Positions 2,905-59,927 of a stretch of DNA of 64,000 nt are shown piece after piece. How positions within the stretch are numbered: position 1 is the stretch's first letter; the number at the start of each line of letters is the position of its first letter. Source of the DNA: a virus. Its lineage: Duplodnaviria; Caudoviricetes. The notes beneath the pieces were generated by a model. It was not told where the DNA came from, searched no databases, and worked only from the letters and a program-made list of their open reading frames with translations. A program made the position numbers and the translations under genes. The DNA is taken from positions 4,082 through 68,081 of the IMG/VR virus record IMGVR_UViG_3300015607_001184; one strand, 5' to 3'.

Positions 2905-3359
2905 TGCCTCGCGTTCTCATCTGCGGTGGCCGCACCTACGGATACATCCCGGCCTATCCGGAGCCCGGCCATGTCGAGGAGTGGCGTGCCGCCGTCCAGC
3001 GCGGGCAGAGGCAGCGTGACGCGCTTAACCACCGTCTCGACAGGCTGGTGAGCCGCTACGGGCCCGAGAACCTGACGATCATCCACGGCGCGGCGAGCGG
3101 GGCGGATGAGCTTGCCGGGGCATGGGCGCACGACAGCGGCATTGACGTGATCGCCTTTCCCATCACCGACGAGGAATGGGCGCGCTGGGGCAGGGCTGCA
3201 GGTCCCAAGCGCAACGCCCGCATGCTGCTGCAGGGCGAACCCGACCTCGTCATCGCCTTCGAAGGCGGCAAGGGCGCCCAGAACATGGTGCGTCTGGCGC
3301 GCGGCGCTGGCGTGACTGTCGATATCGTGGAGGCGGATCAATGCGCCGTGCTGACCTGA
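2904..3359 (+). CDS. YspA/DUF2493-like SLOG-fold protein
   Basis: RVLICGGR, IIHGAASGAD, GRAAGPKRNARML, PDLVIAFEGGKGAQNM; TGATG overlap with portal stop. Confidence 0.88.
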   Translation: MPRVLICGGRTYGYIPAYPEPGHVEEWRAAVQRGQRQRDALNHRLDRLVSRYGPENLTIIHGAASGADELAGAWAHDSGIDVIAFPITDEEWARWGRAAGPKRNARMLLQGEPDLVIAFEGGKGAQNMVRLARGAGVTVDIVEADQCAVLT

Positions 3360-6300
3360 ACGCATTGATGGACCGCTTGCGCCAGTCTTATGGCGACGAC
3401 GCGGCGCGGCGTGTCGAAAGGGCGGCTGACGAGGTCCATGGCCTCGACCAACGCTACACAGACACGGCCCTTCATCATGCATTTGCAGGTAACGCGGATT
3501 CGGCGCTGGTCGCCATGAAGCCCGGCGATTTCGAGAAATACGCGGCTCGCCTGCCCGAGAAGGGCTATCCGGATTACGGCTATTTCGACTGGGATACGGG
3601 CGCCGACCTCGATTACGACCAGTACATGGACTACCTCAACACGATTGAGCACAGGGGCGGTCTGTCGGACGTGCCGTTCCTCAATGTCGGCCACGAGGAA
3701 GGCGCGGACCTGCCTTATGTCGGGGCTCATGAGGGGCGCCATCGCATGCGCGCCATGGCCAAGGCAGGCAAGCCGACGGGCCTCGTCATGATCCGCCCGT
3801 CGGGACGGCTGGAGGAGAGCCTCCGGCACGGGCCGACCTATGAGACGGCCTACCGCGATTCCAACCAGAAAAGGCAGGCCCTGCTGGATCACCTCGCGGC
3901 GCATGACCGCATGGTCTACCCGCAGAAAGAACGCGACAGGCAGGACGACATTCGCGGCCCGGAGCAGCTTCCGGAGGCCTTTTCCAAAGGCGGGATCACT
4001 GGGAAGCCCTCGACAGTGAAGATTCCCGGCCACGGCGAGATCGCGGCCGACGAGATCCCCGAGGTGATGGCGGCCAAGCGCTCCTATATGGGACACCGCT
4101 TCGGCGACCCGCGTAAGGCGGACATCGACGGCTATACGCCATTCGACGAAGCGCACGCCCGCAAGATCGCCGAGGCCTACGAGGCCATGCAGCACGCCCC
4201 GCACGATCCGGCCGTGCGGCGCTCCTACGAAGCCATGATCGACGAGACGCTCGACCAGTACCACGCGCTCAGGAACGCCGGATACGACTTCCATTTCATG
4301 CGCGACGGCGAGCCTGACCCCTACGCGGAATCGCCCGCGCTGGGCTATCTCGACGCCAAGGATGGCCGCCTGACGGTGTTCCCGACCGATCAGGGCTACG
4401 GCATGTCCATGCTCCACAGCGAGGAGATGAACCCGCTGCTGAAGCGCGTCGGCCGCATCGGCGACCTCGACAACGCCACGGCCAACGACGCCTTCCGGGC
4501 GGTCCACGATATGTTCGGCCACCACGGCCCGGGCAACCCGTTCTTCCGCCACAAGGGCGAGGAGCGGGCGTGGGAAGCGCATTCCAGAATGTACTCCGAC
4601 GACGCGCTCCCGGCGATGACCTCGGAGACGCGCGGCCAGAACAGTTGGCTGAATTTCGGCCCGCACGAGGAGTACAACCGCACCGCCAACGGCGCCGACA
4701 CGATCTATGCCGAGCAGAAGGCAGGCCTGATGCCGGAGTGGACGTGGCGCCGCCACAGGCGCGCCGACGGGGGCTCGATCCCCGGCCGCGAGCTGAACGA
4801 GCTTGGCATGTACTCCAAGGCTCTGGAGGAGGCCAAGGCGATCAGGCAGCCCAAGGGCAAGCTGTCCGATTTCCTGCGCTATCTGAAGGGCGGGCTGGAG
4901 GAGTTCCGGCGTGGCGGGTGGGTGGATCGCGGTGGCTATGCCCGGGGCGGCATCGCCGACTATCAGGACGAACTCGACAGCGCCAACCGCATGATGAGCC
5001 CGGACGAGGAGGGGCTTCTGGCCTATCCGCGCGACCGCTACATTGACCCACACTACCGCGTGGGGGCGCTCAAGGGCTGGACCTTGAACCCGAACCTGAG
5101 GCAGGACAGGTTCCTCGACTACCCCAGCGTCAACGACGACATCGGGGCGCCCTACTTCAACGGCTGGAACGAGAACAAGGGGCGCTTCCGCAACTACGCC
5201 GACGGCGGTGCGGTCGAGCGTGAGCATTTCGAATTCGGCGGCTTTCAGGACAACTCTCGCCCCGGGCAGGCGGGCGACCCGGGTAACTGGGGAGCGTGGG
5301 GCAATGGCACGGAGGACGTGTCGGTACGCGATGCGCAGGCAGCCGGGCTGCGGGCGGGCCTGTCACGCGCCGAAGTGGCCTACGGGCAGGTTCCCGGAGG
5401 TCTTGGCTACCGTGGGGGCAGTGGCACGAGCCTGACGAACCTCCCCGAGCTGAGCGCTGCCAACCTTGCGCGCGCTGGTATCTTCAACCCCGGCGAGCGC
5501 CGGGTGTCAGGAAACCCGGCGGACGCGGCGACGGGCATGGCGCAGCCGGGATCCGTCCGCGAGGCTCTTGGGCTCGGCAAGATGCCCGAGCAGACCCAGA
5601 CGCCGGAGCAGGCGGTGCAGCAGGTTGAGGCGCAGCGCAGGCAGGCTGCCGCCGCTTCCGACCCTTCCGGCTTCAACGGGCTGGCTGGCGGCACGGTGGC
5701 GCTGGCGGCCTTCGGCGCGCTGCCCGGGCAGCACAAGCCCGGCGAGGACATGACGACGCCTGCCGACACAGGGTTCATGTCGACGCCCGAGCAGAACAGC
5801 TACAACCGGTTCATGGACACCGCCCGCAACACCTACATGGAGGCGGGGAACCAGAGCGACGAGGGCATGCTGGGTGTCGCCTTCTCGGCGCCGAACCGCA
5901 CCGCCATCAATTATGGCGGCATTGGCCCCGGGGGCATCGACACCACCGGCTACAACGACCCCAATGCCTCGTTCGACGAGAACGTGACGCGGAATATCTA
6001 CGCCCCCAAACAATACAGCTGGACGAACCCGGCCCTGAACAGAAAGACCGGCGTGGTGAATGTCGACCGCGCTCGCGACATCGCCGACGCCGAAATGGCC
6101 GGGGCGCCGGATCGTGCGCAGCGTGCCTATGCGGCTGCCTATGCGCAGCAGTTCGGAGGGGCGACGGACCCGACCTATGGCGCCGTGTCCTACCACGCCG
6201 ACTATGTCAGCCCGGCGTGGCGCCGGGACGCAGCTTCGCTGGGGACGCCCACGGTCATTGGCGACCACACCTTCTACGGCGGCAGCCCGCCCACGGCCAC

Positions 6301-7795
6301 GCAGGTGGCGGGCCCCGGCGCAGCAAGCGTCCTGTCCACCATGGCGGACCCGTGGGGCTTCTCGCACATGACGCCGGTGAACGATCTGGCTACGGCGCCG
6401 CTGTCGTGGACGGACCGCATCGGCGCGCCCCCGGCAACACCTCTCGGTTCCCCGCGCACGCCCACTCCCGCCTCTGCCTACAGCGTGGGGGAGGATGCCA
6501 CGCCTCTCGGCTCTCCGCGCACGCCGACCCCGGCCACGGCCTATGCCCCGGAGGGCGCCACGCGCACATGGGCGAACCCGATTTCGGTGCCCTATTCCGA
6601 CCCCGGCTTCGAGCGCCCGGGCTACGACATCTCGGTCTATCAGGGCGTCCCGCTGGCCGACATCACGCCGGTGCGTCCTTCCGCGCCGACGCTCACGGAG
6701 CAGGCCTACAACCCGCTGTCGTCGATTCGTGCACCTTCCGTTGTCGACCCGTTCACGGCGAGGAAGGTGCAAACCGAAAGGATCTCGCCGCCCTCCGAGG
6801 AGCCCAGCTACACCCGGGCGCCCTATCACGACACGGTCTACGATGCGCCTGCCGCGACGGCAGCCGCCGTGGCGCGGCGCATGGGATGGCACGACAGCGT
6901 CTACGACGCACCTTCGGCACAGGCATCGCCGCTTGGATCCCCCCGCACGCCGACGCCCGCCAGCGCCTATGCCAGCCCCGAAGCGGCCCCGGCTGCCCCG
7001 GTGGCGCGCCCGGCGGCGCCTTACGGAACGCGCGGGAACCCCCTTTCGGCCGCAGACATGGCTGCCGTCGGGCTCGGCGACGCGACACCGGCGCAGCTGC
7101 GCAGCTATCGCGCCGATATCCCGCGCGGGTCCATGATCAGCTCTGACTCTCCGTACTATGGCACCCGCAACAACCCGTTGTCGGACGCCGACATGGCGGC
7201 TGCAGGCCTTGGCGACGAGCAGTCCTTCTCGAAGAAGTACCTCGGCTTCCGGTCGAACGACGAGGTCGATGCCGACAACAAGCCCTACAAGGATCCCGAG
7301 ACTGGCCAGTGGGTCGATCCGCGTTTCTCGCGCACGCCCGTCGGCATGGCGGCTCTCGGCCTTCTTGGGCTCGGCCTGACCGCCGTCTCGCCGCCGCTGG
7401 GCATCGCCTACGGCCTGTCGGCGCTCATGGGCAAAAGCCCCCTCATCAATGGCGCTGACAGGCTGGCCAGCCGCTTCGGCTTCGACGGCCGCACGACGAC
7501 TACGGATCCCAATGCACCGAGCGCGTGGGGCAGCCTGAAGAGCGGCGTGCAGGGCCAGTCTTACGCGCCCGGCTATGATGGCGCCGGGACAGGGCGCTCG
7601 CTGTCATCGTTCAACGGCAATAGCGGTGGAAACGGCTACAGAATGTACGACCCCGTTCCCGGGCCCGTTGCGAATCCAATCGATGTGAAGTCCAAGAAGA
7701 AGGCAGCGGAACCGAAACCGGAACCGGTCAGGCCCTCCGATTGGAATGACATGGCCTCGTGGCAGCAGGAACTCTGGAGTGACACCTATGGCTGA
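3341..7795 (+). CDS. Large multidomain (polyvalent) virion/internal protein: ParB-like domain, HDxxGH domain, SleB-type cell wall hydrolase, repeat tail
   Basis: ATG 3341 with GGAGG upstream (track start 3176 too early); HEGRHR motif, RAVHDMFGH..GEE motif, EA..GM..V..NR / QYSW / D.TYGAVSYHA.YV.P.W / IGDHTFY hydrolase motifs. Confidence 0.75.
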   Translation: MRRADLNALMDRLRQSYGDDAARRVERAADEVHGLDQRYTDTALHHAFAGNADSALVAMKPGDFEKYAARLPEKGYPDYGYFDWDTGADLDYDQYMDYLNTIEHRGGLSDVPFLNVGHEEGADLPYVGAHEGRHRMRAMAKAGKPTGLVMIRPSGRLEESLRHGPTYETAYRDSNQKRQALLDHLAAHDRMVYPQKERDRQDDIRGPEQLPEAFSKGGITGKPSTVKIPGHGEIAADEIPEVMAAKRSYMGHRFGDPRKADIDGYTPFDEAHARKIAEAYEAMQHAPHDPAVRRSYEAMIDETLDQYHALRNAGYDFHFMRDGEPDPYAESPALGYLDAKDGRLTVFPTDQGYGMSMLHSEEMNPLLKRVGRIGDLDNATANDAFRAVHDMFGHHGPGNPFFRHKGEERAWEAHSRMYSDDALPAMTSETRGQNSWLNFGPHEEYNRTANGADTIYAEQKAGLMPEWTWRRHRRADGGSIPGRELNELGMYSKALEEAKAIRQPKGKLSDFLRYLKGGLEEFRRGGWVDRGGYARGGIADYQDELDSANRMMSPDEEGLLAYPRDRYIDPHYRVGALKGWTLNPNLRQDRFLDYPSVNDDIGAPYFNGWNENKGRFRNYADGGAVEREHFEFGGFQDNSRPGQAGDPGNWGAWGNGTEDVSVRDAQAAGLRAGLSRAEVAYGQVPGGLGYRGGSGTSLTNLPELSAANLARAGIFNPGERRVSGNPADAATGMAQPGSVREALGLGKMPEQTQTPEQAVQQVEAQRRQAAAASDPSGFNGLAGGTVALAAFGALPGQHKPGEDMTTPADTGFMSTPEQNSYNRFMDTARNTYMEAGNQSDEGMLGVAFSAPNRTAINYGGIGPGGIDTTGYNDPNASFDENVTRNIYAPKQYSWTNPALNRKTGVVNVDRARDIADAEMAGAPDRAQRAYAAAYAQQFGGATDPTYGAVSYHADYVSPAWRRDAASLGTPTVIGDHTFYGGSPPTATQVAGPGAASVLSTMADPWGFSHMTPVNDLATAPLSWTDRIGAPPATPLGSPRTPTPASAYSVGEDATPLGSPRTPTPATAYAPEGATRTWANPISVPYSDPGFERPGYDISVYQGVPLADITPVRPSAPTLTEQAYNPLSSIRAPSVVDPFTARKVQTERISPPSEEPSYTRAPYHDTVYDAPAATAAAVARRMGWHDSVYDAPSAQASPLGSPRTPTPASAYASPEAAPAAPVARPAAPYGTRGNPLSAADMAAVGLGDATPAQLRSYRADIPRGSMISSDSPYYGTRNNPLSDADMAAAGLGDEQSFSKKYLGFRSNDEVDADNKPYKDPETGQWVDPRFSRTPVGMAALGLLGLGLTAVSPPLGIAYGLSALMGKSPLINGADRLASRFGFDGRTTTTDPNAPSAWGSLKSGVQGQSYAPGYDGAGTGRSLSSFNGNSGGNGYRMYDPVPGPVANPIDVKSKKKAAEPKPEPVRPSDWNDMASWQQELWSDTYG

Positions 7796-12789: not shown

Positions 12790-13704
12790 ATGGCTGTCAA
12801 TCTTTCTGCCATCAAGGATCTCCTCCTCCCCGGCCTTCGCGGCATCACGGGGAAGTACGACCAGATCCCGACCCAGTACGACAAGCTCTTCGAGAAGTCG
12901 AAGTCGAACATGGCTCTGGAGCGCACCGCTGAGATGCGCTACCTCGGCCTCGCTGCCCTGAAGAACGAGGGCGGCCAGACCTACTTCGACAACAACGCCG
13001 GTGAGCGCTTCGTCTACAATCAGGAGCACACCGAGCTGGGTCTTGGCTACGCGATCACTCGCAAGGCCATCGACGACAACCTCTACAAGACCCAGTTCAA
13101 GCCGTCGAACCTTGGCCTGATGGAGTCCTTCGTGCAGACGAAGGAGATCCTCGGCGCCTCGATCTTCAACACGGCGACGACCTACAACTCCTCCTTCGGC
13201 GGCGACGGCAAGGCCCTGCTGGCGACGGACCACCCCATCGACGGCGGCACGTTCGCCAACAAGCCCACGACCGAGGTCGACCTCAACGAGGCCACCCTCC
13301 TGAACGGCATGCTGGCGATCCGCCAGAACATGAAGGATCAGGCGGGCCTCAAGATGTACGCCCGGGCGCGTAAGCTTGTGGTTCCTGTCGCTCTTGAGCC
13401 GGTTGCTGTACGTCTTACCAAGACTGAACTGCGCCCCGGCACTGCCGATAATGATGTCAATGCAATCCGCAGCGTATCGGGAGGCCTTCCCGAAGGTTAT
13501 ATCGTCTGCGATTTCTTGACGTCTAACTTCGCTTGGTTCCTTCTCACTACGGTGAAGGGGCTGATTTACATGGAGCGCGTAGCATTCGAAATGGACATGC
13601 AAGTGGACTTCACGACAGATAACCTGTTGGTGAAGGGCTACGAGCGGTACAGCTTCGGCTACTACAACCCGCGCGCTCTCTGGGGAACTTTTCCGACATC
13701 TTAG
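12790..13704 (+). CDS. Major capsid protein (Mu gpT-like family)
   Basis: LLLPGL, LGYAITRKAIDDNLY, GDGKALLATDHP, DLNEATL, KLVVPVALE, DFTTDNLLVKGYERYSFG; RBS GAGGAG; strong codon bias. Confidence 0.92.
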   Translation: MAVNLSAIKDLLLPGLRGITGKYDQIPTQYDKLFEKSKSNMALERTAEMRYLGLAALKNEGGQTYFDNNAGERFVYNQEHTELGLGYAITRKAIDDNLYKTQFKPSNLGLMESFVQTKEILGASIFNTATTYNSSFGGDGKALLATDHPIDGGTFANKPTTEVDLNEATLLNGMLAIRQNMKDQAGLKMYARARKLVVPVALEPVAVRLTKTELRPGTADNDVNAIRSVSGGLPEGYIVCDFLTSNFAWFLLTTVKGLIYMERVAFEMDMQVDFTTDNLLVKGYERYSFGYYNPRALWGTFPTS

Positions 13705-25153: not shown

Positions 25154-25363
25154 ATGCTTAATGACCTCGTGACCGCTTTGAAAAATGCAGTAACGGCCAT
25201 ATCGTTAATCAATCAGACGCTGCGCAGCGTCTTCCCCTACGCCACGGGGACATCATCGACCGCAACAGCCGGTGCCGCATCGCTTCCGGCAAATCCGGTC
25301 GGCTTCATCACGATCACCCTTCCCGACGGCACGTCGGCGAAGGTGCCGTACTACAACACTTGA
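25154..25363 (+). CDS. Small tail protein
   Basis: C-terminal LPANPVGFITI..G...KVPYY motif seen in phage tail proteins; RBS AAGGA. Confidence 0.55.
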   Translation: MLNDLVTALKNAVTAISLINQTLRSVFPYATGTSSTATAGAASLPANPVGFITITLPDGTSAKVPYYNT

Positions 25364-25370
25364 GGGCGGC

Positions 25371-27971
25371 ATGGCTGACGATTTCACAGAAGACCTCGCC
25401 TCGACCGCCGATCTGGCAGACGCCACCACGTCTGACGAGCAGCATCGCATGGAGATCGAGCGAGCCAAGCGCCGCACGATCAAGACCGTCTCGCTGACCG
25501 ACAACGAGAAGGCGCTGCTAGACCGCGTGGCCGACAAGAACCAGCGCAAGAAGATCGCGGAATCGATTAAGAGGACCAAGGGCCGTTTCCCGGTGTCGGA
25601 GGGCTGGGCCGCACCGGAAGCGAGCAAGCTGGTCACCAACAAGGCGGGTGAGCTGAAGACCGACAAGAGCGGGACGCCAAAGATCGGCTACAAGGGCATC
25701 GGCTTCAACTACGACCGCGACGACGCCGGAAAGAAGCTGCAGCGCTACACGCCGGAGTACGACCGCGCCGTCAAGGCGGTAACCAACCGGGCGCTGAACG
25801 AGATCCGTAAGACAATCGCGCGCGCCGAGGCCGGTGACCTGAATGCCCAGAAGACGCTGCGGCAGGTCGGCTGGTATCGCGAGGCGATGAAACGCGAGAT
25901 CGACCGGCGCGGCGGTGCCCACATGGCCTTCGCCGACCTGCTCGGGGCGACATCCCCAAACACCGTCGTCTCGGAGAACTATAAGCTGGCCGACCTTGCC
26001 CAGCAGGGCCACGCACGGGGCGACTTCGACGCACAGAACGAGTTCATGGCCCGGTACAACGGCAACATGAACGACTACCCTGAAGATCAGCTGATCAGAA
26101 AGAAGAGCGGGGCCCAATTCGGCATGAACAGCCGAACCGCCTCCATGGCGATGACTGACCGCTGGTCGCAGGAGGAGCCCGGGCAGGCACCCAAGGCGCG
26201 CAATTTCTCCGGCAACCTGTCGGGCCGCTCGGACAAGGCCACCATCGATGTGTGGGCGGCGCGCTTCCTCAACCGCATGGCCCAAAAGGCCCGCGTCCCG
26301 GTGCCGTCGCAGATGGGCGTCGAAGGCGACATGCGCCCTGACAGACCCGACCGCAAGATGGTCGGCCCGGTCCGGCTGCGCGCCTCCGGTGAGTTCGGCT
26401 TCGGGCAGGACGTGTTCGACATGCTGGCCAAGCGCCTGAAGACGACAGGCGAGCTGGCGCCATACCTGAAAGAGCTTGGCTACAAGCACGCCACGCCAGC
26501 CGACCTGCAGGCGCTGACGTGGTTCATCGAGAAAGAGCACTGGGCCAAGAACGACTGGACCTCAGCGGCAGGCGAGGGTGGCTCATTCGAAGATGAGCAG
26601 GCGCGCCAGCCCTTGCACCGCTATCAGGCAGGGTTCTCGATCCAGCAGGACGCGCCGCCGAGCGACGAAATGATGCACGAGGCCGCCCAGCACATCCACA
26701 ATGGGTTGGCGAGCGACGACAAGGTGCGCGTCTTCCGCGTCAATCCGACCTATGGCCGGTACGGCGGCGAGAACGAGCGCAGTTTCGACTCCGAGGTCAC
26801 CGCGCACCCGGACTGGGATCCGAGCGACTGGATGATCCGTCATCTGGAGCTGGCCAAGCAGCACAACCAGAAGGACGTGTTTTTCTCACGCCGCCTCGAC
26901 CCGGAGGAGGCCGACGAGCACCCCAACGCGCGCCCGGGCGTCGAGATCTATTTCAAGAACCGCAAGGCCATGGAGGCGGCCCAGCCGGTCCTCGACAGGT
27001 TCACGAACAAGGGCATTGACGGCTTCACCTACATCACCGACCTGCGTCACTCCCACCGCACCGCCAAGGGCGCCGACAGCAAGGACTACGTCGGCGTCAG
27101 GCTGCAGTGGGTGCCGGAGATCTCGCAGCGCTGGGACGACGAATTGCGCGACCGCTGGGAGCAGGATCCAGAGGCCCTGAAGGCCGACAAGATGGACGCT
27201 CTGGAGCGCATGCAGGACGTGATTCACCATCTTGATAAGCATAAGCACGGCATTGTTGACGCACGCATCCATAATTATGATACAGTGGTATCTGGGAAAG
27301 AGGACTACGATGACCACATCCGTGAACTCAGAGAAGCCCAGCGCACATCTGGAAATGCTGCGGGAGCAGCTCGCACGGTCGCTCCGCAAGTACGGGGAGG
27401 ACTCTCTCTCCACGAGAACATTGCGCGCCGAAATCGCGCGCTTCGAACGGCGGAGGAAGGAGGGTCGTCAGGACCACCACCAGCACTGGACGGCGGGCCG
27501 GACCTGAAATTCAAGAAGGGCGGCAAGGTCCCGCCCTACGAGCCGGGGTCGCCGATCCACCATCCGGTGGCCGACGATCCTATCATCATTGGCGCCATCG
27601 AGAGCGACGTGCCCGGCAGGACCGACAAGCACGAGTGCTCGGTCCCCGCCGGTTCCTACGTCATCCCCGCTGACGTGGTGAGCGCGCTCGGCCAAGGCAA
27701 CACCTTGGCTGGGCAGCGGGTGCTTGACCAGCGCTTCCGGCAGGGCCAGCACGGCCTCCCCGACATTCATGCCCACATGGCCAGAGGCGGCCCCGCCACG
27801 ACGGTCCCCGTCGTTCTGGCGGGTGGCGAGTATGTCGTCGCCCCGGCAGCCGTGGCGCGCGCTGGTATGGGCAACCTTGACCGGGGGCACCGGGCGCTCG
27901 ACAAGTTCGTGCGAGCAACCCGCGCCAAGACCGTGAAGACGCTGCGCAAACTGCCTCCGCCGAAGAAGTGA
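25371..27971 (+). CDS. Polyvalent internal/ejection protein: helical DNA-acting domain, SAM-lyase-like domain, tandem GEYV domains
   Basis: ATG 25371 after GAGGG; motifs GWY, LLGATSP, KARNFSGNL.G..ATIDVWAAR; GRY..ENERSF..LAKQHNQKDVFF; GRTD...GSYVIPADVV..LG and GGEYVV. Confidence 0.7.
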   Translation: MADDFTEDLASTADLADATTSDEQHRMEIERAKRRTIKTVSLTDNEKALLDRVADKNQRKKIAESIKRTKGRFPVSEGWAAPEASKLVTNKAGELKTDKSGTPKIGYKGIGFNYDRDDAGKKLQRYTPEYDRAVKAVTNRALNEIRKTIARAEAGDLNAQKTLRQVGWYREAMKREIDRRGGAHMAFADLLGATSPNTVVSENYKLADLAQQGHARGDFDAQNEFMARYNGNMNDYPEDQLIRKKSGAQFGMNSRTASMAMTDRWSQEEPGQAPKARNFSGNLSGRSDKATIDVWAARFLNRMAQKARVPVPSQMGVEGDMRPDRPDRKMVGPVRLRASGEFGFGQDVFDMLAKRLKTTGELAPYLKELGYKHATPADLQALTWFIEKEHWAKNDWTSAAGEGGSFEDEQARQPLHRYQAGFSIQQDAPPSDEMMHEAAQHIHNGLASDDKVRVFRVNPTYGRYGGENERSFDSEVTAHPDWDPSDWMIRHLELAKQHNQKDVFFSRRLDPEEADEHPNARPGVEIYFKNRKAMEAAQPVLDRFTNKGIDGFTYITDLRHSHRTAKGADSKDYVGVRLQWVPEISQRWDDELRDRWEQDPEALKADKMDALERMQDVIHHLDKHKHGIVDARIHNYDTVVSGKEDYDDHIRELREAQRTSGNAAGAARTVAPQVRGGLSLHENIARRNRALRTAEEGGSSGPPPALDGGPDLKFKKGGKVPPYEPGSPIHHPVADDPIIIGAIESDVPGRTDKHECSVPAGSYVIPADVVSALGQGNTLAGQRVLDQRFRQGQHGLPDIHAHMARGGPATTVPVVLAGGEYVVAPAAVARAGMGNLDRGHRALDKFVRATRAKTVKTLRKLPPPKK
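27310..27507 (+). CDS. Overprinted 65-aa protein in +1 frame inside the 25371-27971 gene
   Basis: GAGGA 6 nt before ATG; GC-ending codons in this frame; helical sequence LREQLARSLRKYGEDSLSTRTLRAEIARFE. Confidence 0.55.
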   Translation: MTTSVNSEKPSAHLEMLREQLARSLRKYGEDSLSTRTLRAEIARFERRRKEGRQDHHQHWTAGRT

Positions 27972-28029
27972 CGGGATAGCGAATCCGTGCGCGCTCGTGC
28001 ATGCATGTGATGCCGATCTGGGGAAGCGA

Positions 28030-28512
28030 ATGGTCGACTACGCCACAGAGGTCCGTCTCGCGGTCCAGTCCGACGAAGAGGACATCATGGTCCTGTGCCG
28101 GTTACTCCACAAGGAGAACGGCCTGTGGACGCTCAACGAGCAAAAGGTGCGCCATATGCTTCGGCGCGCGTGGCGTAAAGAATTTGCCATTGTCGGAATT
28201 GTCGGGAAACCCGGCGCCCTTGAGGGCATGATCTTGCTGGTGCTCGACCAGCCTTGGTACTCGGACGACTGGATGCTTGAGGAGATGCTCAACTACGTTC
28301 ACCCGGAGCATCGCAAGTCGGGCCACGCGAAGCGCCTTGTCGAGTTCGCGAAGAAGACATCGGAGGGGCTTGGTATCCCTCTGATGATCGGCATCATCTC
28401 AAATGAGCGCACGGAAGCGAAGGTAAAGCTGTACCAGCGGCAACTGGGAAGCCCGGCTGGAGCCTTCTTTGTCTACGGAGCCCGAACGGGCGACGTGGGG
28501 GCGGAGCACTGA
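28030..28512 (+). CDS. GNAT-fold acetyltransferase preceding ejection proteins
   Basis: PWYSDDWMLEE..YVHPEHRKSGHAKRLVEFAK acetyl-CoA motif A. Confidence 0.75.
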   Translation: MVDYATEVRLAVQSDEEDIMVLCRLLHKENGLWTLNEQKVRHMLRRAWRKEFAIVGIVGKPGALEGMILLVLDQPWYSDDWMLEEMLNYVHPEHRKSGHAKRLVEFAKKTSEGLGIPLMIGIISNERTEAKVKLYQRQLGSPAGAFFVYGARTGDVGAEH

Positions 28513-57694: not shown

Positions 57695-58360
57695 ATGCCC
57701 AGCCTGCCGAACGCGAGATGGGAAGCCTTCGCGCAGGCTCTGGCACGCGGCGAGACGCAGGCCGAGGCGTATCGGCAGGTGTATGGGAAAACCAGCTACG
57801 CCAGCGCCAGCACCCTTGCGAACCGACCCCCGGTTATTAAAAGGGTCGCCGAGCTGAGGCAGAAGGTTGAGGCGAAGATCGTTGCCAAGGTGGCTGCACC
57901 GGCGATTGCGGCCAACATTTCCAAGGCGCGAGTGGCTGAAGAGCTTGCGAAAATCGCTTTCGCTGACATTTCCAAGGCGGTTGTCTGGGGCACGCGGAAG
58001 GTCGCCGTTCAGCAGCAGGGGCGCAATGCAGGCGCCGTGGAGCTGACCGTCGAGGAGACGCGCACTTTCGTCGAGTTTCTCGACAGCGAGAGCCTGCCGC
58101 CTGAGATCACGGCGGCCATCTCTGAAATCAAAATGTCAGCAGAAGGCGCCATCACACTGAAATTCCACGACAAACGTGCCGCCCTCATGGACCTTGCGAA
58201 GCTCTTCGGCTGGGTGATCGAGCGCAAGGAGATCGGGCAGGCTGGGGAATTTGAGGACCGGACCGATGACGAGCTTGCCGCCATTATCGCGGGACGAGTT
58301 GATCCTGCGGGCCGCCGCCGCCAAGGAGCTAAGCCTGCGGGAGGTGAGACGCTTAACTGA
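57695..58360 (+). CDS. terS: Terminase small subunit
   Basis: N.RWEAFAQAL..G..QA.AY, IAFAD, ITLKFHDK..AL..L.K..G; upstream of TerL. Confidence 0.85.
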   Translation: MPSLPNARWEAFAQALARGETQAEAYRQVYGKTSYASASTLANRPPVIKRVAELRQKVEAKIVAKVAAPAIAANISKARVAEELAKIAFADISKAVVWGTRKVAVQQQGRNAGAVELTVEETRTFVEFLDSESLPPEITAAISEIKMSAEGAITLKFHDKRAALMDLAKLFGWVIERKEIGQAGEFEDRTDDELAAIIAGRVDPAGRRRQGAKPAGGETLN

Positions 58361-59927
58361 GAAGCCGCGCGGCGGGTTAATCGAGTTTGTGAGAGAATTC
58401 TGGCATGTTGTTGAACCTGTTAGAGAATTGCAGGAAGGCTGGGTTCTAGACGCGATCTGCGAGCATCTGGAGGCGGTGACAGACGGGCGCATCACGCGCC
58501 TGCTCATCAACGTGCCGCCCGGATCGATGAAGAGCCTGCTGTGCAACGTGTTCTGGCCCGCGTGGATGTGGGGACCAAGGGGTTACGACAATTATCGCAT
58601 CCTTTCGTTTAGCTATGCGGCGCATCTCACTGAAAGAGATAACGAAAAGTTTCGCGACATCCTGCAGAGCCAGCTGTTCCGCGATTGCTGGCCTTCGGTG
58701 CGGCTGGTGAAGGCGGGCGCCACCCGTGTGAAGACGGCGCGGCAGGGCAGCAAGATGGCCTCGTCGGTGGGCGGCGTGGTCACCGGCGAGCGCGGCGACA
58801 TCGTGGTGCTGGACGACCCTCACAACGTGGCGGAGGGCGAGTCGGAGGTGGTGCGGCAGGCGACCGTGGAGTGGTTCAGGACGGCCATGTCGAACCGCCT
58901 CAATGATCTGGAGAAGAGCGCCATCGTGGTGATCATGCAGCGCGTGCACGAGGGCGACGTGTCGGGCTGCATCCTGTCCGACTTCAACGGCGAGTACACG
59001 CACCTGATGATCCCGGCCGAGTATGACCCGGGGCGCCATTGCGTCACGTCCATCGGCTGGGAAGACCCGCGCATGGTCGAGGGCGAGACGTTCTGGCCGA
59101 GCCGCTTCCCCAAGCGGGTGCTGAACAACGCCAAGACGGTGCTGGGCAAGTACGGCTACGCCGGGCAGTACCAGCAGACGCCGGAGCCGAAGGGCGGCGG
59201 CATCATCAGGCGCGATCACTGGCAGCTGTGGGAGCACGCCACGTTCCCGCCGATGACGACGCTCGTGGCCAGCCTCGACACCGCCTACACGGAGAAGCAG
59301 GAGAACGACATGTCGGCCCTGACGCTGTGGGGCCTCTTCGAATGGAGCGGCTTCTACGGCGAGGGCGGCGAGCAGCTCAACGCCATCGTCAGCTATCAGG
59401 GCGAGCGCATGAGCCGGTCGAACGCCCACCTGTCGTCGTCGGTGCCGCAGCTGATGCTGATGTATGCGTGGGCGGAGAGGCTGGAGTTCCCCGAGCTGGT
59501 CGACAAGGTCCACGCCACCTGCAAGAAGTTCAAGGTGGAGACGCTGCTGATCGAGGCCAAGGCGGCGGGCCACAGCGTGGCGCAGGAGCTGCGGCGCCGG
59601 GCCTCGACGCTGGGCTTCAGCGTCCACCTGATCGATCCCAAAGGGCAGGACAAGGTCGCCCGGGCTCACTCGGTCGTGCCCTTCTTCGACGCCAAGCAGG
59701 TCTGGGCGCCGGACCGCAGCTGGGCCGACATGGTCATCAACCAATGCGCCCGCTTCCCCAAGGGCGAGCACGACGACGCTGTGGATTCCGTAACGCAGGC
59801 GTTGCGGTGGATGCGCGTTAATGCTCTGCTTACGTCGCCGGAGGAGATCGACGAGGACGAGCGCGAGGCGGCCGACTGGGGTCAGGCCAAGCTCTTGCCG
59901 CCCATATATCCGACAGCTGGATACTGA
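58266..59927 (+). CDS. terL: Terminase large subunit
   Basis: LINVPPGSMKS, TGERGD..VLDDPH, IMQRVHE.D, YAGQYQQ.P.P..GG, SLDTAY, LIEAKAAG, DKVARA, FPKGEHDD.VDS.TQA. Confidence 0.95.
   Translation: MTSLPPLSRDELILRAAAAKELSLREVRRLTEKPRGGLIEFVREFWHVVEPVRELQEGWVLDAICEHLEAVTDGRITRLLINVPPGSMKSLLCNVFWPAWMWGPRGYDNYRILSFSYAAHLTERDNEKFRDILQSQLFRDCWPSVRLVKAGATRVKTARQGSKMASSVGGVVTGERGDIVVLDDPHNVAEGESEVVRQATVEWFRTAMSNRLNDLEKSAIVVIMQRVHEGDVSGCILSDFNGEYTHLMIPAEYDPGRHCVTSIGWEDPRMVEGETFWPSRFPKRVLNNAKTVLGKYGYAGQYQQTPEPKGGGIIRRDHWQLWEHATFPPMTTLVASLDTAYTEKQENDMSALTLWGLFEWSGFYGEGGEQLNAIVSYQGERMSRSNAHLSSSVPQLMLMYAWAERLEFPELVDKVHATCKKFKVETLLIEAKAAGHSVAQELRRRASTLGFSVHLIDPKGQDKVARAHSVVPFFDAKQVWAPDRSWADMVINQCARFPKGEHDDAVDSVTQALRWMRVNALLTSPEEIDEDEREAADWGQAKLLPPIYPTAGY

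Follow-up and report, generated by a model that had tools for sequence, protein, structure and literature searches.

Architecture of the 867-residue protein

The window examined here is the 64,000-nucleotide stretch from positions 4,082 to 68,081 of IMG/VR virus record IMGVR_UViG_3300015607_001184 (Duplodnaviria; Caudoviricetes), a complete genome of 68,081 bp. Its plus strand carries a gene for an 867-residue polyvalent protein, in which the original prediction had flagged nucleotides 26615 to 26890 (residues about 417 to 508) as a domain resembling the S-adenosylmethionine (SAM) lyase of phage T3 (SAMase). The flagged segment was found to be the core of the first of two tandem units (residues 408 to 650) that lie behind a DUF7178 domain and are probably homologous, at a very great distance, to the T3-type phage SAM lyases. 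Features of the gene are listed in Table 1. The peptides on which the prediction was based are present exactly as quoted in the plus frame (...RYQAGFSIQ...NPTYGRYGGENERSFDSEVT...LELAKQHNQKDVFFS..., followed by ...NARPGVEIYF...DGFTYITD...VGVRLQWVPE). An open reading frame (ORF) on the opposite strand (26583 to 26864) was also considered and was unsupported; the plus frame has hundreds of homologues.

Table 1. Features of the gene for the 867-residue protein (window coordinates)
Feature	Coordinates	Strand	Details
Gene for the 867-residue polyvalent, probably ejected virion protein	25368-27971	+	ATG at 25368 (MADDFTED); ORF open from GTG at 25272
Helical DUF7178 domain, obligate upstream partner	25575-26588	+	Residues 70-407; Pfam PF23802, E value 1e-7
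Unit 1, SAM-lyase-like ferredoxin/PII-like core (beta1-alpha1-beta2-beta3-alpha2-beta4)	26589-26918	+	Residues 408-517
Signature G463-x-Y465-x4-E470-x-S472	26754-26783	+	End of beta2, short T-loop, start of beta3
B-loop signature Q501-K-D503	26868-26876	+	Aligned with T3 Q94-D95 and Svi3-3 Q104-E105
Unit 2, second beta-alpha-beta-beta-alpha-beta unit	26919-27317	+	Residues 518-650
Low-complexity linker and C-terminal duplicated domain	27318-27971	+	Translation

A fold model of residues 408 to 650 (243 amino acids [aa]) was generated with AlphaFold2 from a 63-sequence alignment, with a predicted local distance difference test score (pLDDT) of 94.5 and a predicted template modeling score (pTM) of 0.89, and contained two tandem beta-alpha-beta-beta-alpha-beta units. 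In unit 1, DSSP assigned strands at residues 10 to 15, 46 to 58, 61 to 72, and 96 to 103 and helices at 26 to 41 and 79 to 91 of the domain, which together form a ferredoxin-like core; the flagged nucleotides run from beta1 to beta4 of this confidently modelled unit. The "second alpha/beta unit" that had been proposed to follow was also recovered, with four modelled strands (residues 114 to 126, 146 to 149, 167 to 173, and 222 to 236). A larger model of residues 70 to 650 (pLDDT, 92.9; pTM, 0.91) consisted of a mostly helical DUF7178 part followed by the same two units. Comparison of unit 1 with unit 2 using hhalign gave no sequence sign of internal duplication (P = 0.14).

Searches with residues 390 to 640 identified 62 relatives in a set of 5.8 billion proteins and 413 clusters (50% identity; E value, ≤1e-3) among 1.84 billion representatives, many of them 2,000 to 4,461 aa in length. 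A further 226 loci carrying the domain were identified in IMG/VR. At all 80 of these that were examined, the domain lay directly behind a DUF7178-like region in the same ORF (424 to 4,369 aa), and no free-standing copy was seen among the 80; the real unit is therefore a two-domain cassette of DUF7178 and the tandem-unit domain. Relatives bearing the cassette were found in uncultured phages, freshwater and marine samples, and Proteobacteria bins, and an 866-aa database protein was 99% identical to the protein studied here. A near-invariant glycine-rich loop, GEGGSF (26571 to 26588; residues 402 to 407), falls exactly at the junction of DUF7178 and unit 1, and distant relatives carry an insert of 40 to 130 residues between the two.

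Resemblance to SAM lyases in structure, sequence, and signature residues

Using VIA-align, the model was compared with 48,161 PDB representatives. The best single-unit match was the SAM lyase Svi3-3 (6zm9_A; Z-score, 6.9; root mean square deviation [rmsd], 3.6; 114 of 129 residues); in the same search T3 SAMase scored 5.2, and S6, ABM, and designed ferredoxin folds scored 5.6 or less. A second comparison gave Z-scores of 6.9 for 6zm9, 6.8 for 6znb, 6.0 for 7ock_J (118 of 149 residues), and 5.8 for 8bb1_E. Across comparisons the T3 SAMase chains scored 5.2 to 6.0 with 118 to 120 residues aligned. With the larger module (residues 70 to 650), 6zm9_A ranked third with a Z-score of 7.6, so that the Svi3-3 alignment covered 114 to 116 of 129 residues at Z-scores of 6.9 to 7.6 across both models. 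The SAM-AMP lyase 9gab_D scored only 4.4, on unit 2, for which the nearest structures were PII-like (CPII and SbtB, 4.8; TM0021, 5.0).

A Foldseek comparison with SAM lyases had been suggested as a check. Among viral models, the matches outside the domain's own family included a 125-aa protein of phiR8-01 and a 137-aa protein of RSB2 (ORF3), with E values of 1e-3 and 7e-3, respectively; these were taken to be the products of the phiR8-01 and RSB2 genes that match Pfam family PF23780, to which T3 SAMase belongs (E values, 4e-25 and 5e-28). Against the PDB, the matches were tandem-ferredoxin enzymes and ACT-type regulatory domains; those to chlorite dismutase and coproheme decarboxylase, at low template modeling (TM) scores (0.2 to 0.3), were set aside as sharing the tandem-ferredoxin topology and nothing more. 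The top neighbor in the ESM Atlas was a cluster with PF23780 in 27% of its members; the score was weak (0.77).

Sequence profiles were compared with hhalign. The match of unit 1 to close T3 relatives only was not significant (P = 0.07 to 0.2), and with both profiles enlarged it reached a P value of 0.005. Against 67 PF23780 sequences, the P value was 0.0013 over 92 colinear columns, and the real score was reached by none of 150 column shuffles and 4 of 150 block shuffles. Against a divergent PF23780 subgroup, unit 1 scored 28.0 (P = 2e-4), compared with 16.3 for the reversed target and maxima of 17.7 for column shuffles and 21.8 for 8-column-block shuffles (n = 120 each), none of which reached the real score; because of these margins, the resemblance to SAM lyases exceeds chance. 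Control profiles of unit 2 and DUF7178 gave no signal against SAM lyases (scores, 9 to 19). Using HMMER with filters off, SAM-lyase hidden Markov models (HMMs) scored 13.7 to 16.5 bits on unit 1 sequences (best E value, 8e-5 among 244), and the reciprocal search with a unit 1 HMM matched PF23780 member P0254 over 97 residues (E value, 6e-4 among 71), with the alignment registers agreeing in both directions. When IMG/VR was scanned for PF23780 members of greater diversity, most of what came back was from T3-like phages.

Few folds are as common as the ferredoxin-like one, and the likeness to SAM lyases could be convergent or generic. The domain would then be an unremarkable module of tandem ferredoxin-like units (ACT-, PII-, or DABB-like) with a structural, oligomerization, or small-ligand-sensing part in an ejection protein. 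The middling and nearly tied Z-scores, the nature of the Foldseek matches in the PDB, the failure of every curated family model to detect the domain, and the nonsignificant first comparison with close T3 relatives would all be expected of such a module. However, VIA-align, Foldseek on viral models, hhalign, two-way HMMER, and the ESM Atlas all picked the same small family, the match is colinear across the whole of unit 1 with the catalytic residues in register, and the unit 2 and DUF7178 controls lack such a signal. Invariant polar residues on the strands also argue against a purely structural role, and a generic module is considered quite unlikely.

The T3 pattern given in the original prediction was correct, as T3 gp0.3 reads VSAFRS...TGCYRE...EEKTVRV...LACNEWEQDCVLV. 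Conservation of its counterparts was counted in 195 unique relatives, of which 191 were scored per position. G463 is Gly in all 191, position 465 is aromatic in 186 (115 Tyr and 71 Phe), position 470 is Glu in 189, and position 472 is Ser in 113 and Ala in 74. G463, Y465, and E470 align with T3 G55, Y57, and E68 and with the GVYKGxxExS motif of PF23780 members with a short T-loop. In one correction to the prediction, the alignments pair T3 E68 with E470, in "ENERS," and not with the Glu of "SEV"; E470 is most likely the catalytic residue, because the short-loop members have the same spacing (G-V-Y-K-G-x-x-E-x-S). In the B-loop, Q501 is Gln in 191/191 relatives and is followed by Asp at +1 or +2 in 183/191, and the stretch "AKKYNQDSVFIS" in relatives lines up with "AEQYNQESIMIR" in the SAM lyase of phiR8-01.

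These positions are those on which known enzymes depend. Among active SAM lyases only Gly56, Glu69, and Gln104 are strictly conserved, with Tyr58 and Glu105 in supporting roles (Guo et al., PMC7877911); in the SAM-AMP lyases the T-loop has a Glu at its C-terminal end and the B-loop has a Gln (PMC12255297), and the activity of T3 SAMase is abolished by E68Q/Q94A (10.1101/2023.02.27.530186). Judged by alignment and strand position, the catalytic and substrate-holding residues appear to be present, and the signature would overlay the SAM pocket. The predicted motif order and spacing, the fold class, and a kinship specifically with T3-type SAM lyases, not just with ferredoxin-like folds at large, were supported by structure, Foldseek, hhalign, targeted HMMs, and conserved residues. 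The residues with which T3 SAMase binds MetK (T4, N9, Q103, T104, and H105, in the N-terminal tail and beta4-beta5 loop; 10.1101/2023.02.27.530186) are not shared: the hhalign register reads R-Q-P-L-H, with an unrelated longer loop (RRLDPEEADEHPN).

Eight invariant or nearly invariant acidic residues lie on or beside the strands (E470, D474, E476, D503, E526, D551, D558, and E584), as might suit a metal-dependent phosphoesterase or nuclease whose targets after ejection would be nucleic acids of the host or nucleotide alarm signals, and domains that process nucleotides, such as InPase and RelA/SpoT, are common in polyvalent proteins (PMC5512222). Such an enzyme is very unlikely: no nuclease or phosphoesterase family was matched in the PDB comparisons, whether by structure or by sequence, the beta2-beta3 hairpin is variable except for E470, unlike GGDEF or palm motifs, and acidic pockets also fit the cationic SAM. 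A palm- or GGDEF-like reading of "YGGENE" in that hairpin was dropped on the same ground, E470 alone being conserved there.

SAM lyases are known in two arrangements. Svi3-3 and the SAM-AMP lyases form trimers whose active sites lie where subunits meet (PMC7877911, PMC12255297), whereas T3 SAMase is a monomer, a nine-strand barrel whose body is completed by beta5 to beta9 (10.1101/2023.02.27.530186). A trimer is therefore not required, and unit 2 is probably part of the same catalytic body as unit 1, in which it would plausibly fill the completing role of T3 strands beta5 to beta9. T3 SAMase chains superpose on the model as far as residues 174 to 176, i.e., inside unit 2, and the motifs KGIDGF/KGIDGY and LQWVP/FQEVP are colinear with T3, although unit 2 alone has no profile signal. 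Invariant residues in unit 2 are R522, P523, G524, E526, T554, G576, R578, Q580, P583, E584, Y637, and T639. The presence of two unlike units per chain points to a T3-like intramolecular arrangement rather than a homotrimer of the Svi3-3 type.

Two divergent relatives and a database label were noted in the course of these comparisons. ORF6 of Ralstonia phage RSB1 (3197 to 3571), a 125-aa early protein, was ambiguous as a Foldseek match; it lies just 5′ of a kinase-like gene, as gene 0.3 lies relative to the kinase gene in T3, and retains "TTEPTFIV" and "NQDCIAA" without the G-x-Y motif, and could be a SAM lyase that has degenerated or diverged very far. On a 66-kb IMG/VR contig (1381 to 1788), a divergent SAM-lyase relative of 135 aa, which is followed by a ParB-like gene, has G-A-F in place of G-x-Y, and therefore the aromatic position can be Phe in free-standing members of the family too. 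The label "SAM-dependent methyltransferase," the opposite of what a SAM lyase does, is attached to the SAM lyase in the RefSeq T3 record (gene 0.3, 901 to 1359), in PHROG 2226, and in at least one phage record, and has spread to relatives.

Genome setting and proposed action

The 867-residue protein is encoded in a plus-strand structural operon. The portal gene (82 to 2904) is followed by genes for a 1,539-aa multidomain protein, the major head protein (12790 to 13704), two SU10-type adaptors, and a 687-aa virion structural protein, then by the 867-residue gene. Downstream are a small GNAT gene and genes for a "DNA ejection protein" of 1,105 aa, which has an S74 chaperone domain, a 1,038-aa protein, and a tail-collar fiber; replication genes and the large terminase gene (58251 to 59927) come after the operon. 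Relatives of the protein (477 to 4,461 aa) carry SLT, glucosaminidase, amidase, phage lysozyme, M15 peptidase, ART-PolyVal, InPase, and LPD23 domains. Given this portal-to-fiber position and the fusion of relatives to cell wall hydrolases, the protein is probably carried in the virion and ejected with the DNA. The virion-module context proposed earlier was supported, and the protein has the hallmarks of a polyvalent protein, namely, several domains, a place among virion genes, and enzymatic domains that are shuffled in relatives.

A SAM-lyase homologue in this position is proposed to act as follows. Phages would insert the cassette of DUF7178 and tandem units into polyvalent proteins that the capsid carries and that are ejected together with the DNA. 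In the cytoplasm, the premade enzyme would bind SAM or a SAM conjugate, for which unit 1 would contribute counterparts of the residues that hold the substrate in Svi3-3 and T3 SAMase (Gly463 and Tyr465 where beta2 ends, Glu470 and Ser472 just past the short T-loop, and Gln501 and Asp503 in the loop preceding beta4). Unit 2 would stand in place of T3 strands beta5 to beta9 or of the neighboring Svi3-3 subunit. SAM would be cleaved to methylthioadenosine and homoserine lactone, and SAM-dependent defenses (type I and III restriction-modification, BREX, and SAM-AMP signaling) would be blunted before phage gene expression. Whether the domain works by a SAM or SAM-conjugate lyase mechanism is finely balanced, with doubt slightly ahead. 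The best explanation as a whole, a divergent SAM-lyase homologue whose two PII-like units form one catalytic body in an ejected cassette, is likewise put forward tentatively.

Several observations weigh against it. The structural Z-scores are middling, 0.3 to 1.3 above those of generic ferredoxin-like folds, and matches covering both units scored higher, namely, porter domains of RND pumps (7.6 to 10) and aldoxime dehydratase (7.3 to 7.4), which are other tandem-ferredoxin bodies. PF23780, with a cutoff of 28 bits, gave no match to the protein, the domain, or either unit up to an E value of 10. At the same limit, Pfam, PHROGs, and NCBIfam gave no match on the domain itself, the curated libraries finding only DUF7178 (residues 165 to 306) in the whole protein, and no solved structure was found when the family profile and the protein were searched against PDB sequences. 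About 15 further polar residues are invariant, including the acidic row E470, D474, and E476 and much of unit 2, and fusion behind DUF7178 is obligate (80/80 loci); both observations suggest a larger or different active site. The kinetics are also unfavorable. Svi3-3 turns over about 9.5 times per second (PMC7877911), and by our own rough estimate about ten packaged copies would need many minutes to deal with roughly 1e5 SAM molecules per cell, too slow to precede restriction. Local action, a rarer substrate such as SAM-AMP, or a changed function may apply instead. A standalone canonical SAM lyase elsewhere in the phage was also sought, and the PF23780 search of the 68-kb genome found none.

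A changed function would mean that this relative of the SAM lyases forms one enzyme with DUF7178, acting on another substrate such as DNA or a nucleotide-like ligand. The old SAM pocket would survive as a site at which an adenosyl compound binds or exerts regulation, without bulk degradation of SAM. The obligate fusion, the confidently modelled two-domain arrangement (pTM, 0.91), the many invariant residues outside the lyase signature, and the kinetic argument would fit such a role, as would the leads from DUF7178 itself. DUF7178 superposes on the Thermotoga Ogg-type 8-oxoguanine DNA glycosylase 3n0u_A (Z-score, 7.4; rmsd, 4.7; 185 of 209 residues), and in the ESM Atlas it gave weak matches (0.77 to 0.76) to clusters with Ogg-HhH and AGOG. 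It also has an invariant P275-K276 and an invariant D294 ("ATIDVWAAR"), 18 residues apart, a spacing that we take to be close to the Lys-Asp spacing of helix-hairpin-helix (HhH)-GPD enzymes. An Ogg-type HhH glycosylase fold for DUF7178 is nevertheless a weak lead, given a Z-score of 7.4 for a helical domain, the Atlas score of 0.77, and the lack of any match of the Pfam Ogg-HhH and AGOG models in this genome. Adenine nucleotides are typical ligands of PII-like folds and occupy the same cleft (PMC7877911, PMC12255297), which would again suit a changed job. On the other side, the lyase reaction is unimolecular and makes very few demands, and every residue that it needs is retained and invariant; a changed job is considered unlikely.

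A more specific form of such a fusion would be a single new enzyme in which DUF7178 and the SAM-lyase-like barrel turn the C-gamma-S bond chemistry of SAM on DNA. A DUF7178 of base-flipping HhH-like type would present a flipped base as the nucleophile instead of the SAM carboxylate, leading to 3-amino-3-carboxypropyl transfer, or another coupling of SAM cleavage to the base, on the entering genome or host DNA at ejection. This possibility is highly improbable.

Relation to known systems and neighboring genes

The domain is a putative enzyme and probably a previously unrecognized, very distant relative of T3 gp0.3 (PF23780; PDB 7OCK and 8BB1), a phage counterdefense enzyme. Both have a ferredoxin-like core with motifs in the same order and at nearly the same positions (the beta1 Ser, G-x-Y/F, the Glu past the T-loop, and Q-D before beta4), and in both the strands after beta4 probably lie in the same body, T3 superposing on the model into unit 2. 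T3 gp0.3 differs in being a free 152-aa early protein with nine strands and two helices; the model here shows eight strands with four main helices, and the domain invariably occurs as a fusion behind DUF7178 in a late virion protein of 867 to 4,400 aa and carries many extra invariant residues without Pfam detection or the T3 MetK-binding residues. Svi3-3 (PDB 6ZM9), the best single-unit structural match, and the SAM-AMP lyases (PDB 9GAB; candidate AcrIIIB4) have in common with it a Glu where the T-loop ends on its C-terminal side, a Gln in the B-loop, and a Gly and an aromatic residue closing beta2. Candidate AcrIIIB4 indicates that lyases of this kind can sit behind another domain. They differ in being homotrimers; here each chain has two unlike units, the second without the signature. 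The tandem two-unit form would thereby be a third architecture in the SAM-lyase superfamily, after the trimers of the Svi3-3 type and the monomeric barrel of T3.

Delivery in the particle also has precedents. T4 Ip1 to Ip3 inhibit nucleases or modify DNA, and none of them is known to degrade a cofactor; like the protein proposed here, they are premade, are delivered with the DNA, and disable host restriction (PMC12373910). A packaged enzyme that degrades SAM also has a forerunner: a 2023 proteome of cyanophage S-CREM2 virions included a SAM hydrolase, which is presumably injected to act before phage transcription (PMC10665884). In the present case the setting is a podovirus-type ejection protein, and the enzyme would be a far more divergent two-unit form tied to DUF7178. 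Polyvalent proteins were described by Iyer, Burroughs, Anand, de Souza, and Aravind (2017, PMC5512222) and share the multidomain build, the place in the virion module, and the combination of the cassette with SLT, lysozyme or amidase, ART-PolyVal, InPase, LPD23, and RelA/SpoT domains; the terms "SAMase" and "S-adenosylmethionine" are absent from the text of PMC5512222, and the Pfam LPD models derived from that work miss the domain. No paper describing the cassette or linking DUF7178 proteins to SAM lyases was found in the literature. The SAM-lyase link is a first testable biochemical hypothesis for a widespread cassette that previously lacked functional annotation. If the domain is active, destruction of SAM or a SAM conjugate would be a preloaded counterdefense in podovirus-type ejection proteins and not only an early-gene function; if it is inactive, a lyase pocket would have been reused inside a larger enzyme of other function.

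Other parts of the locus were less informative. The C-terminal 126 aa of the 867-residue protein matched one uncultured phage record, the sole tblastn match among 50,697 phage records. Directly 3′ of the gene, inside the ejection-protein cluster, lies a gene for a 171-aa GNAT acetyltransferase (27997 to 28512); InPase domains akin to those of polyvalent proteins are found fused to or adjoining GNAT and NUDIX domains (Iyer et al., 2017, PMC5512222). The gene for the 1,539-aa multidomain protein (3176 to 7795), which adjoins the portal gene, had as its sole match PHROG 3170 (unknown function) over residues 431 to 494, and its product is probably a second packaged polyvalent protein of the same phage.

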